The translations under genes were made by a program, and so were the position numbers. Shown here one piece after another: positions 40,690-46,740 of a DNA stretch of 64,000 nt. Every line of letters starts with the position of its first letter. Position 1 is the stretch's first letter. Origin of the DNA: Candidatus Brockarchaeota archaeon. Its GTDB lineage: Archaea > Thermoproteota > EX4484-205 > JAAOZP01. Under the pieces are notes generated by a model. It saw only the letters and a list, made by a program, of their open reading frames with translations, had not been told where the DNA came from and did no database searches. The stretch covers positions 16,501 to 80,500 of the forward strand of contig JAFNJB010000053.1 in assembly GCA_017601245.1 (NCBI GenBank), read 5' to 3'.

Positions 40690-40832
40690 TTCTTTTTCTC
40701 AAACTTCTATGGAATCTTTTTAAGTATTTAGTTACTTAGAAACTGGTGGAAAAATTTTCCATCTGTCGGTGAAATTTTGCATTTGCACACGTCATAAATA
40801 GTTGTTTTTATTAATTTGCGACGTGGTCGAGG

Positions 40833-42191
40833 ATGATAAGAAATTTGCTTAAAATATTATCCATTGCTGCAGTGCTTTTAATCGGAATCGTCATAAGACA
40901 ATTTTTAGAATCCCTATGGCTGGTTTTAACGGGTTCGGATTCAAATGGTCTTTCAAGCCTAGTCTCACTCATTACTATGATTTTTTCTTCAATACTGCTT
41001 CTGCCTATTAAGCAAGAGAATAAAGCGGGGATTATAGGGTTGTTCAAAGAAGTCTTAATCTTCCTATTCATCTGGATTGTAACATCATTATTTGCAGCCT
41101 TCTTACATCAACCTAAGCATGCTTCAATAGGCTTCATAGCTGCGTCTTTATACTTATTCTCTAGGCTAATCATTAATCGAAGCATCGGGCATAGGATAAT
41201 GCTTGAGCTTAAAGAATACTCCAATATACCTAGGGGCAGTACTATACTCATGTCTGTTGCACCTGTCCCAAGGGTCTTCATTACACAGGGTTTTGGGTTG
41301 AGAATTATTTTAGAAATCCTAAAGGGTAATGCTGGGATTGCTAATGTAATCAATGAAGAGGTCTTTCTAAAATCGTTCAGGGAAATTAAAGTTGTTGAGC
41401 TTCAGGGAACTCTAGCATCCTTTGTAAAGGCAGTGGCGGAGAATTGGAACCGGGAAGTAGCGATATTCTGCGAAGCAAAGCTTAAGGGAAGTCTTTTCAA
41501 AATCAGAGTTAAACTCGCTTCTGACAGTACTCGGGCTATAGAAAGTATACTTAATGGATTTTCAAAACTAGATGGTATGGAAGATTTAGAATGGGCCATT
41601 GAAAAATGGTCTCTCTTAAAACCGTGTGTTAAGCCGATTAGACTAGTTGACAAAAGTGTTTTTCTACAGCCGGAAAATGTTCCCGAGCGTCTTTTTATTG
41701 TGGGAGAGTTAGAAGAAGTTGAAAAGGTTGCATTACAGGTTTGCTTTTCCCAGTTGAGAAGCAATTCGAGAATCGTCATAATCAATGGCGAGGAGGACTC
41801 TTCTTTTGAGAATAGGGTTGGGAAAATGCTTGAGGCTAAGGGTTTCAAACCCTATGGCAATGAGATTAAAACGTTCAGAACTAGTAGGGGAGCAGAGGTA
41901 ATACTTATGAGGAAAGCTGATTTGAAAGAAAGGATTGTCAACAAGTTTTTGAGAAAGCCTATTGTTGCACTATGGTTGAGAAACTTTTCAGAAGACATTC
42001 AACTGAAAGCTCCGTTGAGGGTTTTAACGTGCAACATGCCTGAGGCTAATCCGGCTTTAGAAGCGGACGGCATATTGCTCTTAAGCCCGAGCGAGAAGAT
42101 CTTGGAGTGTTTCATACCTGAGAGATACGGGCTTTCGCTTCGAGGTAGGATGGTAATGGTCTCAGCTAAGGGGGTGAGTATATTAGCATGA
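40833..42191 (+). CDS. membrane protein: 4 N-terminal TM helices plus a ~330-aa cytoplasmic domain of unknown function
   Basis: 452 aa. TM helices at roughly residues 5-25, 41-60, 67-92 and 97-119. No recognisable catalytic motif. A 4-nt overlap with the next gene follows. Confidence 0.5.
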   Translation: MIRNLLKILSIAAVLLIGIVIRQFLESLWLVLTGSDSNGLSSLVSLITMIFSSILLLPIKQENKAGIIGLFKEVLIFLFIWIVTSLFAAFLHQPKHASIGFIAASLYLFSRLIINRSIGHRIMLELKEYSNIPRGSTILMSVAPVPRVFITQGFGLRIILEILKGNAGIANVINEEVFLKSFREIKVVELQGTLASFVKAVAENWNREVAIFCEAKLKGSLFKIRVKLASDSTRAIESILNGFSKLDGMEDLEWAIEKWSLLKPCVKPIRLVDKSVFLQPENVPERLFIVGELEEVEKVALQVCFSQLRSNSRIVIINGEEDSSFENRVGKMLEAKGFKPYGNEIKTFRTSRGAEVILMRKADLKERIVNKFLRKPIVALWLRNFSEDIQLKAPLRVLTCNMPEANPALEADGILLLSPSEKILECFIPERYGLSLRGRMVMVSAKGVSILA

Positions 42192-43423
42192 AGAGCATTC
42201 GACCAAGAGTGAATGAAGCGTTCGAACTCGTGGGCAAAGTGGGAATAGCCGGATGGAATTTCAGGAGGGTCCTCGTATTCCTTCTTTCAAAGCTTCTGAA
42301 GGATTACAAGATGATACTCCTAGACCTGAGTGATGAATTCAGTTGTATTACGAGAATAAACGGGGCAAAGTATTACAACGTCTTCGAACATAGCATAAAC
42401 CCTATCAAACCGTCTTCTCAAGAGAGAGTTGAACAATATGTAGAGTCGCTAGTGGAGATAATTGATTACTGTCTTGGAGTTTTTAACATGAAGAGCATTA
42501 TTACGAAAGCTTTTATTAACAATATTTCATCGTCTGAAACTACAATACCTGAAATAATATCCAAACTGGATTTCGAGAGTCCTGAAGGAGGATTATCGAT
42601 CTACTCTCCCTTGGAACCATTTACATTCGGCACTTTAAGAAGAGTCTTCGGGAGGCGAGAAGAATTGGACTTTAACGAAGTGTTAGATACTGGTATAGTT
42701 TTCGACCTGTCGGGCCTTCCAACAGCTTCTTCAAAAGCACTGGCAGTCTTAATAGTATTGAACAAGCTCTCGCATATGGTGCCCAAACACCCCACAGTCA
42801 TAGTTATTACCTACCCCAGTATTGTTTGGCCCAAGAATAGGAGATGCGATGCAGCCAAGCTACATGTTGAACAAGTTCTCATAGACGATTTGGAGAGGAA
42901 AGGCTTCATAATGGTTTTTGCTGAAAAGATGTTTTCAGAACTGTCTGATAAGATCGTAAAAGAGCTTGATGCCATAGTTTTCTCACCTCCCTCTGAGGCT
43001 CTAGACCCTTGGAATCCCTGGGGTTTATACACTAGGCTGGAGAATGAAGTCTTAGATTATCCAGCAGTGGTTTTAAACAGGAGGGGCGAGGTCAAACCCC
43101 TCATGTTCCCCTCAAGCATCTTGTTGAAACCCTTGAGTAAGGAGGAGCGTGAAAAGCTCAAGCCTAATCTAAGAGTCTTCAAGGAATATGATAGGTTGAA
43201 AGAAATTCTCAAGGAAGACTATGAGCTTGGGCTTAGAATAATAGACATGGTTAAGGAGTTAGGTGGCAGGGCTGTTTTAAACAGGCTGGTCGAAGAAATA
43301 AGGTCGAAAATAGGGGCCGGCGGGCTTAGGGCGCTTGCCACATTGTTGAGGCACAGTTATTTGAAACAAGTTCAAGAAGGGGGTGAGCAATACCTCGTCC
43401 TTAATGGGGGTGACGGGGGATGA
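42188..43423 (+). CDS. hypothetical protein; possible P-loop-NTPase-like fold with a degenerate Walker A (HerA/FtsK- or secretion-ATPase-like)
   Basis: 411 aa. LVGKVGIAGWNFRRVLVFLLSKLL occupies a Walker-A-like position but lacks GK[ST]. It is followed by KMILLDLSDEF (acidic box), and later IVFDLSGLP...PTVIVITYP in a Walker-B-like position without D/E. No intact GxxxxGK[ST] occurs anywhere. The fold assignment is a hypothesis. Confidence 0.45.
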   Translation: MKSIRPRVNEAFELVGKVGIAGWNFRRVLVFLLSKLLKDYKMILLDLSDEFSCITRINGAKYYNVFEHSINPIKPSSQERVEQYVESLVEIIDYCLGVFNMKSIITKAFINNISSSETTIPEIISKLDFESPEGGLSIYSPLEPFTFGTLRRVFGRREELDFNEVLDTGIVFDLSGLPTASSKALAVLIVLNKLSHMVPKHPTVIVITYPSIVWPKNRRCDAAKLHVEQVLIDDLERKGFIMVFAEKMFSELSDKIVKELDAIVFSPPSEALDPWNPWGLYTRLENEVLDYPAVVLNRRGEVKPLMFPSSILLKPLSKEEREKLKPNLRVFKEYDRLKEILKEDYELGLRIIDMVKELGGRAVLNRLVEEIRSKIGAGGLRALATLLRHSYLKQVQEGGEQYLVLNGGDGG

Positions 43424-44280
43424 GGAGGATTCTCACCGGGATAAAATCGTTAGACGAGCTTACTGGAGGATTTCCCACTGGGGTTTCAAACCTGGTTTAC
43501 GGCAGTCCTGCAACGGGGAAGACAAGTCTTTCAATGACTCTCGTAGCGGAGGCTCTTAGAAATGCGAAGGATAGAGATGTTGTCATAGCTGTCTTAACTG
43601 AAGGCTGGGACATGGACCGTTTAAAAACAATATGTGCCAAGAGGAATGTTAAACAAGATGCTTTAAACAGGGTTAAGACGTATGAAGCCAATAGCTTCGG
43701 AGAGCAACATAAGGTGATAACTGAAGTAATGCCGAGAGATATTGAAGAGAACGATTGGGTCCCAACGCTGATAATCGTAGACTCTCTCGTACCACACTAC
43801 CATGCTCAATTGCTCAACACGCCTCTTCAACACTTGGCTTCTAAAGCCAGAGAATTTCAGGGAAGACTGTCTCTAGAAATAAACACTCTGGTGAAAATCT
43901 CTTCTGGATACGATTCACTATTATTAGTAAACAGCTGGCGGCGTAGTAGTGCTGGCCGAAGCTTTCAGGAGAAATGGAGGAAGGACGTCATAAACGGTAT
44001 TAATAGTAACAATGTTCTGATAGATCCTGAAGCGGGCTTTGGCTCTAGAGAATTTGATGTCATAGGTGGGCAGCATCTAGTCTACATGAGCAAGACCGTA
44101 TTAAGAATGGTTTCGACAAGCCTTGGTGAGAACATTAAGGCTGTTATCTTAGAGAAGGCTCTTTCAAGGCCGACGATGTTCTGTTGCTTGGTGAAAATAT
44201 CTGAAGCAGGTATTGAAACTCATGAGGGTAAGCCCGCTCCTGTTAGTGAAGTGATAAGAAGAGAGGTTATTGAAGACTAA
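43420..44280 (+). CDS. RecA-superfamily ATPase, KaiC/RadB/aRadC (RadA paralog)-like
   Basis: GIKSLDELTGGFPTGVSNLVYGSPATGKTS (the RadB/KaiC-type N-terminus with Walker A) and Walker B LIIVDSL. 286 aa. 4-nt overlap upstream and 1-nt overlap downstream. Confidence 0.8.
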   Translation: MRRILTGIKSLDELTGGFPTGVSNLVYGSPATGKTSLSMTLVAEALRNAKDRDVVIAVLTEGWDMDRLKTICAKRNVKQDALNRVKTYEANSFGEQHKVITEVMPRDIEENDWVPTLIIVDSLVPHYHAQLLNTPLQHLASKAREFQGRLSLEINTLVKISSGYDSLLLVNSWRRSSAGRSFQEKWRKDVINGINSNNVLIDPEAGFGSREFDVIGGQHLVYMSKTVLRMVSTSLGENIKAVILEKALSRPTMFCCLVKISEAGIETHEGKPAPVSEVIRREVIED

Positions 44281-45377
44281 TGAAAGAAAATAATTATATA
44301 CCAGTAAAACATCGTTCATTCATGCCAAAAAGGAAGATAAGAGTCGCCTTCATAGGAATAGGAAATAGTGCCTCCACCACTATACAGGGTCTGTTCTACT
44401 ATTCCTCAGGCCGTGGGGACAGTGGCTTATGGCATCCGATAGTTGGGGGATATGGTGTTGAAGATATTGAGGTGGTTGCGGCCTTAGACGTAGACAGTAG
44501 GAAGGTCGGTAAGGACTTGTCGGAAGCTCTCTTCTCAGAGCCGAATATCGTGGAAAAACGTTGCGAAATACCGAGGACTGGAGTAATCGTTGAGAAAGGA
44601 TTGTTGGAAGACGAGCTTAACCCGTATCTCGCATCTCAACTTAAAGTATTGAAGCAGGATAAGGAAGGTGTAGTTGAATACTTGAAGAAGAGCAATGTGG
44701 ATATTGTTGTTAACACGATATCCAGTGGCTTAGACAAGTCTTCGATTGCTTATGCTAATGCAGCTTGTGAAGCAGGTGCGAGCTTCGTGAATGCCACTCC
44801 TACAAGCATTGCAACAAACCCGGATATTGTTGAAGCCTTTAAGAAAAAGGGTATTGTTGTCGTTGGCGATGACTTGATGAGTCAGCTTGGGGGTACTGCT
44901 CTCCACAGGGGGCTCGTACACTTTCTTAAATCCCGGGGCATTAAGCCAATTAGAAGTTACCAGCTTGACGTGGGTGGGGGTCTAGAAACTTTAAACACTA
45001 TGTACGAAGACCTTAGAGACTTTAAGAAGCAAGTCAAGACTTCTTCTATAGCGGAAGAAATCGACGAGGGTTGGGAAGTCGTATCCGGAACAACGGATTA
45101 CGTGGATTTCCTTGGTAACAACAGGGTTACTTACTTGCAGTTCACTGCAACGGGCTTCATGGGTAGTAGTATAATCATTAACGTTAACCTGAGGTCTAAC
45201 GATGGTATGAATGCCGGTAATGTAATAATAGACGTTGTCAGAGCGGTGATGAAGGCTAGAGAAGACGGTTTAAGCGGAAATGTCAGTGATATCTCAAACT
45301 ACGGCTTTAAGAAGACGCTTGAGAAAAAGCGTATCCATGACGCAACCATGGTCTTCGAATCGAAATACTGCAAGTAG
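44280..45377 (+). CDS. myo-inositol-1-phosphate synthase
   Basis: Rossmann region IRVAFIGIGNSASTTIQG, conserved VVGDDLMSQLGGT (GDDxKSGQT-like), and length 365 aa, typical of archaeal MIPS. The start ATG overlaps the previous TAA (taATG). Confidence 0.8.
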   Translation: MKENNYIPVKHRSFMPKRKIRVAFIGIGNSASTTIQGLFYYSSGRGDSGLWHPIVGGYGVEDIEVVAALDVDSRKVGKDLSEALFSEPNIVEKRCEIPRTGVIVEKGLLEDELNPYLASQLKVLKQDKEGVVEYLKKSNVDIVVNTISSGLDKSSIAYANAACEAGASFVNATPTSIATNPDIVEAFKKKGIVVVGDDLMSQLGGTALHRGLVHFLKSRGIKPIRSYQLDVGGGLETLNTMYEDLRDFKKQVKTSSIAEEIDEGWEVVSGTTDYVDFLGNNRVTYLQFTATGFMGSSIIINVNLRSNDGMNAGNVIIDVVRAVMKAREDGLSGNVSDISNYGFKKTLEKKRIHDATMVFESKYCK

Positions 45378-45411: not shown

Positions 45412-45921
45412 TTGAAGGGTTCCTACCTTCTTGTACTATCGGTTAAGAAGAGAATAAGGTTTAAGCCAGGGTCTCTACCCAGGGCTGAGCTGCCGGCAGG
45501 CTGTTATGTCTACGTTGGGTCAGCGAAGGGGCCGGGTGGCTTCGAGAAGAGGGTTTTAAGACATTTGAAGAAGGTTAAGAAGGCCAGGTGGCACATAGAC
45601 TACCTGACGGGGAGGAAGGATGTTGAGGTTGAAAGCGTTTTCTATACCTCGCCCAGGTATAGTGAGTCGCTGTTAATAAATTTCCTAAGCTCCTTAGGCT
45701 TCCGCAAGGTGATAAAAGGCTTTGGCACTACTGACCATCCCGGCGATTTTTCGCACCTCTTATACTCCGGAGAGGATGAGGGGAAAACGATTGATAGGAT
45801 AAAGTCTGCTATGGTTAAGAGGGGGTTTTATTTCATTCTCTTTGAAAAAGATTCTTTAAGGGGCTTTTCCAATCATACTAGGGATGTTCAAAAGGTGGGC
45901 TGGGGGAGAGTACGAGGTTGA
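45412..45921 (+). CDS. DUF123-family (GIY-YIG-like) protein
   Basis: YLLVLSVKK...GCYVYVGSAKGPGGFEKRVLRHL matches the DUF123/GIY-YIG N-terminal pattern. 169 aa. Confidence 0.55.
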   Translation: MKGSYLLVLSVKKRIRFKPGSLPRAELPAGCYVYVGSAKGPGGFEKRVLRHLKKVKKARWHIDYLTGRKDVEVESVFYTSPRYSESLLINFLSSLGFRKVIKGFGTTDHPGDFSHLLYSGEDEGKTIDRIKSAMVKRGFYFILFEKDSLRGFSNHTRDVQKVGWGRVRG

Positions 45922-46233: not shown

Positions 46234-46740
46234 ATGGGAGAAGATTGGAGTCAGTTAGATCTGGAAAGGCTTAGAATGATAGAGATTGCGGCAAATATTC
46301 ATAGGGTTAAGATAATGATGGAGCTTTCAAAGAAGGGGGATGGTACTGTCACCTCGCTGGCGAAGAGCCTCGGTTACTCCAGGCAATTAGTAAAGCACCA
46401 CTTGGAAACTCTCAATAGGGGTGGGCTTGTCTCCAAGAGGAGGATTGGAAACATGGAGTTTTACAGCATTACTGAAGACGGGAGGACAATACTCTCCGAG
46501 ATACTTAAAATCCATCTTGAAGTTGGGAGGGGGGAGGTCGAAGTATGTAAGCCAGTTGTCAAAGAGAAGAGAACAATAAATGGAGCTGGGTATCTACCAA
46601 TAATCGCGGGAATAACCCCAGTCTTAATATCTCTCATAAAGGGGGTTTTTGAGAATCAACCCCTATGGATAATTGGAGGGCTCATCCTGGGTGTTTTACT
46701 ATATTTGATTTTTTCAAAGCTTATTAAGGTTCTAACGTAG
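46234..46740 (+). CDS. ArsR-like winged-helix regulator fused to C-terminal TM helices (membrane-tethered)
   Basis: wHTH region ([28 protein letters not shown]) followed by two hydrophobic helices ([15 protein letters not shown] and [17 protein letters not shown]). 168 aa. Confidence 0.55.

Follow-up and report, generated by a model that had tools for sequence, protein, structure and literature searches.

Three adjacent genes in the DNA of a Candidatus Brockarchaeota archaeon (contig JAFNJB010000053.1, positions 16,501 to 80,500; this whole 64,000-nucleotide stretch is referred to as the window) form a translationally coupled module that was found in four archaeal lineages. Their products, P1, P2 and P3, are a protein with four N-terminal transmembrane (TM) helices and a predicted degenerate ATPase domain, a predicted pseudo-ATPase of the HerA/FtsK/VirB4 class, and a RadA-like ATPase with intact motifs. 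Tentatively, and with rather less than even confidence, the trio is read here as encoding a single membrane-anchored, hetero-oligomeric ASCE machine with one competent subunit and most likely DNA as its substrate.

An earlier note on this DNA had described four co-directional open reading frames (ORFs) linked by overlapping stop and start codons, and their coordinates were found exactly as it gave them (Table 1). The P1/P2 junction reads gcATGAag at 42188-42191 and the P2/P3 junction ggATGAgg at 43420-43423, and the stop codon of P3 meets the fourth ORF, encoding myo-inositol-1-phosphate synthase (MIPS), in TAATG at 44278-44282. Shine-Dalgarno-like motifs, which are expected ahead of internal genes in archaeal operons, precede both P2 and P3. 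The GC content was uniform over the region.

Related loci were gathered by exact-protein look-ups, a scan of 185,579 species genomes and a metagenome scan. Trio loci were returned from four lineages with only 22-47% identity between them: lineage A, the Brockarchaeota, with two main subclades (P3 identity to the window 72-90% and 66-67%), lineage B, a Bathyarchaeia-labelled group (loci L008-L010 and L040/41), lineage C (L039) and lineage D (L011, L028 and L030-L038). The lineage-B P3 was 46% identical to that of the window, and P2 was 22% identical over its full length (E 4e-10). By tblastn and junction analysis, the three genes were contiguous and co-directional in every locus. The P1/P2 junction was -4 nt in all 27 measurable Brockarchaeota-type loci, and junctions in the four lineages (37 P1/P2 and 38 P2/P3) all fell between -14 and +6 nt, a coupling far beyond chance. 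Among the scored loci, identities co-varied (P1 34-66%, P2 52-83%, P3 66-90%), which fits joint vertical inheritance, and no further gene was conserved beside the trio across the four lineages in the neighbourhood comparison. The idea of an obligate, conserved and uncharacterised gene module, which the earlier note had tied to the three genes being neighbours in relatives, is thus supported by these junctions, and the outcome of that comparison favours the trio. Its proposal to look for relatives in Desulfurococcales and Sulfolobales assumed the wrong taxon, since the close homologues of P1, P2 and P3 all came from Brockarchaeota-type metagenome-assembled genomes (MAGs) of Thermoproteota, several of them named Candidatus Brockarchaeota.

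At one Brockarchaeota locus (L029, 4733-5186), all that is left of the trio are fragments of P1 (59 aa) and P3 (78 aa) between the usual subclade-1b flanks (GT2 ... PFK, CLP1_P). The MAG of this locus also carries an intact locus of the subclade-2 type (L023), and the remnants could reflect a genuine loss of the genes or a bin that mixes two populations.

P2 had been proposed to be a P-loop-fold protein lacking a Walker A motif, and indeed no GxxxxGK[ST] occurs anywhere in it; the predicted fold refines this to a pseudo-ATPase of the HerA/FtsK/VirB4 class (VirB4/HerA/TrwB type). The Walker A and Walker B sites of the window P2 read IAGWNFRR and VITYPS. At the beta1-alpha1 junction, all 26 family members show RIGVAGxNF[RK], with neither the Lys nor the Ser/Thr, and Walker A is also missing in lineages B, C and D. 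The Walker B strand (203-208) ends in T-Y-P-S, with P210 and S211 invariant, and P2 proteins of the distant lineages keep the Walker B acidic residues (VIVDSPE, IIDAAE). The core begins with beta1 at residue 17, with no N-terminal HAS-barrel. All four lineages share a winged-helix motif, LxRLxYLK. Conservation is highest in LDFExPEGGLSIYxPLEPFTFG (127-148), a candidate interaction loop that falls within the helical insertion, in a region of low-confidence structure prediction.

By sequence, P2 resembles very little. No match at E<=1 was obtained in Pfam, including DUF87, FtsK_SpoIIIE, TrwB_AAD_bind and AAA_10, nor did the family profile match the PDB. The sole hint was the NCBIfam VirB4 model TIGR00929 at 20.9 bits (cut-off 643; 8.6e-5). 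An exhaustive hidden Markov model search of 1.84 billion representative proteins returned only nine proteins at E<=1e-3. On this evidence, the family appears as a rare sequence orphan new to the HerA/FtsK/VirB4 superfamily.

The four N-terminal TM helices that had been proposed for P1 were recovered in an AlphaFold2 (AF2) model built from 9 sequences, and agree with hydropathy (three strongly and one weakly hydrophobic) and with a charge distribution that fits an N-in/C-in topology. An invariant TG-DSNGLSSL motif marks the boundary of loop 1 and TM2. The cytoplasmic part had been described as lacking any recognisable motif, which holds for the sequence, since searches of P1, as of P2, against Pfam, NCBIfam, PADLOC and the PDB gave nothing usable. 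It does not hold for the fold: the model includes a degenerate RecA-like/ASCE domain with a dead site. In this domain, only two loop residues separate the beta1 strand LFIVG (286-290) from the next helix, which leaves no P-loop, and in none of lineages A, B and C does P1 show a Walker A at the beta1-alpha1 position. Foldseek of the model against the PDB gave no match at E<=1e-3, the weak top matches being F1 alpha/beta, type III secretion ATPases and KaiC C1; hhalign comparisons of the Brockarchaeota P1 with the lineage-C P1 and with the P3 family were not significant. A pattern search had also pointed to a Walker A near the P1 C-terminus in seven loci (GFSLQGKT and similar); this candidate was rejected, as the window reads GLSLRGRM and the site is not conserved and precedes a beta-strand, not a helix.

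P3 retains Walker A GSPATGKTS (28-36), TE (60-61) and Walker B LIIVDSL, and in the family alignment, G28, P30, K34, T35, T60, E61 and D121 were invariant or nearly so. Its profile matched Pyrococcus furiosus RadA in the PDB at 4e-17 over residues 3-179, and RadB at 1.6e-14. Residue 3 aligned to residue 112 of full-length P. furiosus RadA (1pzn) with nothing upstream; P3 starts at the RecA core and has no N-terminal helix-hairpin-helix (HhH) domain or polymerisation motif. All curated NCBIfam cut-offs for RadA, RadB, KaiC and ArlH were missed, with 73.9 against 172.4 for RadB TIGR02237, 38.9 against 259 for RadA PRK04301 and 17 bits against 215 for ArlH NF052589. The Pfam KaiC family PF06745 was matched at 33 bits (cut-off 26.6) over residues 6-58 only, and KaiC matches in the PDB spanned residues 2-57 only. 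The earlier description as an intact RecA-superfamily ATPase therefore stands, but P3 is RadA/RadB-like and not KaiC-like.

Where RadA reads TNQ, P3 reads tsW, and this W173 (approximately 43936-43938 in the window) was invariant in 14 of 14 sequences. The residue it replaces is the equivalent of RecA Q194, at the end of the strand before L2 and conserved in RadA, Rad51 and RecA. After W173 comes a basic L2-like insert, SWRRSxAxRSFQEKxRK, which is long and conserved, and together the two suggest that coupling of the L2 region to the ATP site is altered. Further signature motifs are GEQHK, VDSLVxHYHAQL and GGQHLxYMSK. Judged by these profiles and motifs, P3 constitutes a distinct RadA-paralogue family.

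The distribution of intact motifs differed between lineages. In lineage D, the P1 counterpart is longer (670-702 aa), with a similar N-terminal membrane anchor followed by a HerA/TrwB-type ATPase domain, whose motifs were intact in all loci holding that domain (GD[KR]SSGKT/GGKSSGKT, IDPHGEY/IDLYGEY and IEDA[DY]E). One such P1 was scanned against Pfam and scored above the gathering thresholds of DUF87 and TrwB_AAD_bind. The lineage-D P3 reads GxPSTAKT in 10 of 10 loci, with Ala for the Gly before the P-loop Lys. P1 and P2 are thus dead and P3 canonical in lineages A, B and C, whereas in lineage D, P1 is canonical, P2 dead and P3 deviant; read from these motifs, each trio has exactly one canonical P-loop. 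P2 showed a weak relation to the ATPase domain of the lineage-D P1 (hhalign E 4e-4, probability 35%; LLDLSDEFS...NPIKP aligned with VIDPHGEY...NPFKPP), because of which P1 and P2 probably began as paralogous HerA-class subunits.

A single machine is suggested by the strict coupling, the co-divergence, the lack of any other conserved partner and the pattern of one live P-loop per trio. From these, we infer a physical P1-P2-P3 complex in which the four TM helices of P1 would hold the assembly on the cytoplasmic side of the membrane, while the P1 ASCE domain and P2, having lost nucleotide binding, would provide the scaffold and bind the substrate. The RadA-like P3 would supply the sole ATP-hydrolysing site in Brockarchaeota; in lineage D, the roles would be swapped, P1 keeping the HerA/TrwB-type site and the P-loop of P3 being deviant. 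DNA as the substrate is suggested by the RadA-like P3, by the winged helix, by the descent of P1 and P2 from HerA/FtsK/VirB4/TrwB-type proteins, and by the neighbouring genes for HerA-NurA and for a single-stranded DNA-binding protein (SSB) described below. By analogy with FtsK/SpoIIIE, VirD4/VirB4 and Ced/Ted, it would most likely be handled at the membrane in uptake, export, segregation or a repair-coupled process.

A narrower version of this machine is unlikely, namely a dead FtsK/HerA/VirB4-type ring or scaffold, anchored by four TM helices, bearing a winged helix and driven by a RadA-like protein, with the motor exchanged between subunits, that would couple DNA passage or capture to a recombinase-like protein and serve as a minimal pilus-independent uptake or segregation apparatus in TACK archaea lacking Ced/Ted.

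No operon combining a HerA-like protein, a RadA/KaiC-like protein and a membrane protein was found described in the searchable literature. The claim that the trio matches no described archaeal machine was borne out, as ArlHIJ, Ced/Ted, HerA-NurA and KaiABC each fail on defining features. By analogy, it would work most like a split, partly fossilised FtsK or an assembly of the type IV secretion system (T4SS) coupling-protein type. P1 and P2 jointly hold the parts of FtsK/SpoIIIE, a 4-TM N-terminal anchor, a motor fold of the HerA/FtsK superfamily and a C-terminal winged helix, which in FtsK is the gamma domain. FtsK and SpoIIIE, however, carry the anchor, an active motor and the gamma winged helix in one chain, and the trio does not. 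Such a chain was found in P0076, a 650-aa relative with a TM anchor, an active HerA-type domain and a C-terminal winged helix-turn-helix, whose layout suggests the ancestral one.

Ced and Ted are defined by a VirB4-like ATPase (CedB/TedB), a VirB6-like channel with 6-7 TM helices (CedA/TedA) and a VirB2-like pilin (CedA1/TedC) (PMC9905601). Their ATPase is active, whereas P2 is predicted to be catalytically dead, and P2 and the Brockarchaeota P1 both lack the Walker A and B of VirB4, VirD4 (TrwB) and CedB/TedB. Instead of a 6-7-TM channel, P1 has four TM helices and a 330-aa cytoplasmic domain (no profile comparison with CedA/TedA was made), and no other polytopic membrane gene that could be a channel candidate was conserved at the trio locus. 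No small two-TM gene in the place of the pilin was conserved beside the trio in the four lineages. Conversely, Ced, Ted and T4SS have no RadA-like subunit corresponding to P3. HerA-NurA has a HAS-barrel and an adjacent NurA, whereas P2 has neither the barrel nor catalytic motifs nor a NurA partner; no NurA is present at the window locus, and the canonical DUF87 HerA is a separate gene in subclade 2.

With RadB and proteins of the aRadC/Sso2452 type, P3 shares a stand-alone RecA core of approximately 290 aa, intact Walker A and B and the lack of an HhH domain, but it differs from these short RadA paralogues in the Trp for Gln, the L2-like basic insert and an operon always shared with two pseudo-ATPases. 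KaiC has tandem RecA-like domains, P3 a single one of 286 aa. The ArlH-ArlI-ArlJ set is alike in combining a small RecA-like ATPase, a protein of hexameric-ATPase fold and a polytopic membrane protein; ArlI, however, is a PilT/secretion-class ATPase and ArlJ a TadC-type platform, whereas P2 has a VirB4/HerA and not a PilT/ArlI fold, and no pilin or archaellin genes are linked to the trio. Rings that mix catalytic and non-catalytic ASCE paralogues (F1/V1 alpha3beta3, the multi-domain EccC ATPases and Rad51-paralogue complexes such as BCDX2) offer an analogy only.

Several observations weigh against the DNA-handling machine. The P2 winged helix has no net basic charge (12 K/R vs 13 D/E), and P3 is without the RadA N-terminal domain and has Trp for the conserved Gln, so that its binding of DNA is putative. 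No channel is obvious from four TM helices per P1, nor is a pilin or pore protein linked to the trio. Because HerA-NurA and SSB are each a constant neighbour within a single subclade, they provide at most two independent observations, and the loss at L029 makes the trio dispensable at least there. Only one evolutionary switch, which sets one lineage apart from the other three, underlies the one-live-P-loop pattern. The comparison of the Brockarchaeota and lineage-D P1 was not significant (hhalign E 0.04, probability 1.3%), so that their orthology rests on gene order, TM anchor and fold. In small GTPases, the change equivalent to the lineage-D Gly-to-Ala gives nucleotide-free proteins (RhoA G17A, PMC3460580); carried from RhoA to a RecA-type P-loop, the parallel would point to loss of nucleotide binding in the GxxxxAKT P3 by analogy only.

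The main rival is a regulatory or scaffold role, in which P3 would be a KaiC/ArlH-like ATP-dependent switch on a membrane-tethered P1-P2 scaffold and the winged helix its output, acting in transcription or by protein binding and either retained at the membrane or set free from it, with no DNA translocation. P1 and P2 as pseudoenzymes would suit it, pseudoenzymes being typical of scaffolds and regulators, as would the lack of basic character in the winged helix, the candidate palindromic operators in the promoter region and the linked ArsR-type regulator with its membrane segment. The Gln-to-Trp change and the missing N-terminal domain of P3 likewise speak against classical recombinase action. 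The N-terminal similarity to KaiC in Pfam also favours a switch, but it ends near residue 57 whereas that to RadA extends to residue 179, and P3 is a single-domain protein with no KaiB- or KaiA-like partner. A full HerA/TrwB-type motor ATPase in the lineage-D P1 suits mechanical work better than signalling, and on balance such a module is possible but rather doubtful.

Defence against viruses or plasmids by a HerA protein with a partner, as in DndFGH/DptFGH, TdpAB, HerA-Sir2 (Nezha) or HerA-DUF4297, is improbable: no effector such as a nuclease or Sir2 was linked in any lineage, PADLOC gave no match for P1 or P2 and only a weak mad8 match for P3 (7.7e-6), and viral-contig scans returned no trio relatives. 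No integrases were present at trio loci, the GC content is even, and the trio holds a fixed position in conserved housekeeping synteny, with a divergence that tracks its neighbours. From these, the trio is taken not to be mobile or defence-related, which was counted in support of the membrane-anchored machine. Both defence and a role in lipid synthesis through MIPS are poorly supported.

The tight link to MIPS seen in the earlier note did not survive comparison, and a four-gene unit tying the trio to inositol-phosphate, lipid-headgroup or osmolyte synthesis is very improbable and largely refuted by the comparative data. MIPS is the next gene after P3 in the window and in nine relatives (L003, L006 and L012-L018), all from one Brockarchaeota subclade, which would favour such a unit, but it does not follow P3 in Brockarchaeota subclade 2, in L005/L019 or in lineages B, C and D. 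None of the nine relatives has the ATG at 44280, which occurs in the window alone. Their P3-MIPS spacers are 15-45 nt long and carry GAAAATAATTATATACCAGTAAAACA, approximately 10 nt 3' of which lies a conserved start, ATGCC(A/G)AA, at 44322 in the window. The TTATATA box in GAAAATAATTATATACCAGTAAAACA is centred approximately 25 nt upstream of this ATGCC start, and an AT-rich box at that distance from a start codon is the archaeal promoter architecture (B recognition element and TATA box, BRE/TATA) of leaderless mRNA. Because the spacer promoter and the downstream start are conserved and the ATG at 44280 is not, the taATG coupling of the fourth gene is an ORF-extension artefact; the mechanical ORF, whose first codons span GAAAATAATTATATACCAGTAAAACA, is probably 14 codons too long. 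By this comparison, MIPS is a separate transcription unit with its own promoter and not part of the trio, although read-through from the trio may occur. In annotation, its start should be moved to 44322 and the gene treated separately.

A gene for a DUF123 protein (PF01986) directly follows MIPS at 45412-45921; its orientation is flipped in L003, L004 and L018, so that its arrangement with MIPS and the trio is not fixed. In lineage B, a CDP-alcohol phosphatidyltransferase gene (1516-2124 in L008/L009) lies approximately 4 kb upstream of the trio. As a second inositol- or lipid-related neighbour it could be cited for the MIPS-linked unit, but it is probably coincidental, since two genes intervene, one of them on the opposite strand.

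If the trio does form one machine, it would be an unusual motor in which two of three ATPase-fold subunits are fossils, and the live site would have moved, depending on the lineage, from the membrane HerA-type subunit to a RadA-like one. The trio would then be a natural test of how dead subunits are tolerated, and put to use, in ring ATPases. Brockarchaeota and some Bathyarchaeia would gain a candidate membrane DNA-handling apparatus unrelated in composition to Ced/Ted, T4SS or FtsK, and the HerA/FtsK/VirB4 superfamily a sequence-orphan family. The trio itself is real, conserved, unusual and rare, and confined to uncultured lineages; its function, the motor subunit and the substrate are what we infer from the comparisons above.

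Table 1. Features of the trio locus and its surroundings (positions in the window)
Feature	Position	Strand	Description
Near-palindrome ACTGGTGGAAAA/TTTTCCATCTGT	40742..40766	.	Core GGAAAAATTTTCC at 40748-40760; GT2/P1 divergent intergenic region; inverted-repeat search; candidate operator
TATA-like box CATAAATA	40793..40800	+	~36 nt upstream of the P1 ATG; putative promoter element
P1	40833..42191	+	452 aa; four N-terminal TM helices (~2-114), alpha/beta middle domain (~136-260), predicted degenerate RecA-like/ASCE domain (~285-452)
Shine-Dalgarno-like GGGGGTGAG	42170..42178	+	Within the P1 3' end, 10 nt ahead of the P2 start
P2	42188..43423	+	411 aa; predicted HerA/FtsK/VirB4-fold pseudo-ATPase with helical insertion and C-terminal winged helix (~333-405)
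Shine-Dalgarno-like GGGGGTGACGGGGG	43406..43419	+	Within the P2 3' end, abutting the P3 start
P3	43420..44280	+	286 aa; RadA/Rad51-core paralogue by Pfam/NCBIfam results, family alignment and profile vs PDB
MIPS mechanical ORF	44280..45377	+	Fourth co-directional ORF of the locus
BRE/TATA-like promoter element GAAAATAATTATATACCAGTAAAACA	44286..44311	+	P3-MIPS spacer; conserved in 10/10 loci with MIPS after P3
MIPS	44322..45377	+	Pfam PF01658 at 73 bits; probable true start is Met15 of the mechanical ORF
ArsR/SmtB-type HTH protein	46234..46740	+	Pfam HTH_5; hydrophobic C-terminal membrane segment

Upstream of P1, the palindrome core GGAAAAATTTTCC was a single site in the 64-kb window, while a looser pattern in the regulon-mark search occurred at chance level. 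Relatives have a palindrome at the same place (GGTGGAAAAGTTTTCCACC in L014), and in subclade 2 (L020-L027), a perfect 22-bp palindrome, GTAAGCGAAAATTTTCGCTTAC, abuts the TATA box upstream of P1. These palindromes are candidate operators. A second inverted repeat, CACGTCATAAAT/ATTTGCGACGTG, brackets the P1 TATA box in the window (40788-40825). ATAAATA was conserved at the TATA position in 14 of 15 aligned Brockarchaeota upstream regions, and by general archaeal promoter architecture the box would act as the P1 promoter; a Shine-Dalgarno-like GGTCGAGG stands directly ahead of the P1 ATG.

Both main Brockarchaeota subclades have the ArsR-type gene linked to the trio. In subclade 2, its homologue, with 42-46% identity, lies next to P1 in divergent orientation, and this linkage in two arrangements has outlasted rearrangement; the protein is a plausible membrane-anchored regulator of the trio. 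The other flanks vary: SSB, AMMECR1, GT2, isoprenoid genes and PFK in subclade 1, the ArsR-type gene, a canonical HerA-NurA pair adjoining the trio and a DHH protein in subclade 2, tRNA synthetases in lineage B, and an ABC transporter, an M20 peptidase and Fe-S oxidoreductases in lineage D. In at least two subclade-2 loci, L001 (10104-16655) and L002, four tightly packed genes with no significant Pfam match (377, 1421, 174 and 223 aa) follow P3 and look like another uncharacterised cluster; different genes lie downstream of P3 in L007, of the same subclade. Within P1, three minus-strand ORFs of 81-148 aa (40811-41071, 41108-41353 and 41402-41848) are most likely spurious, since they overlap a conserved sense gene under purifying selection.

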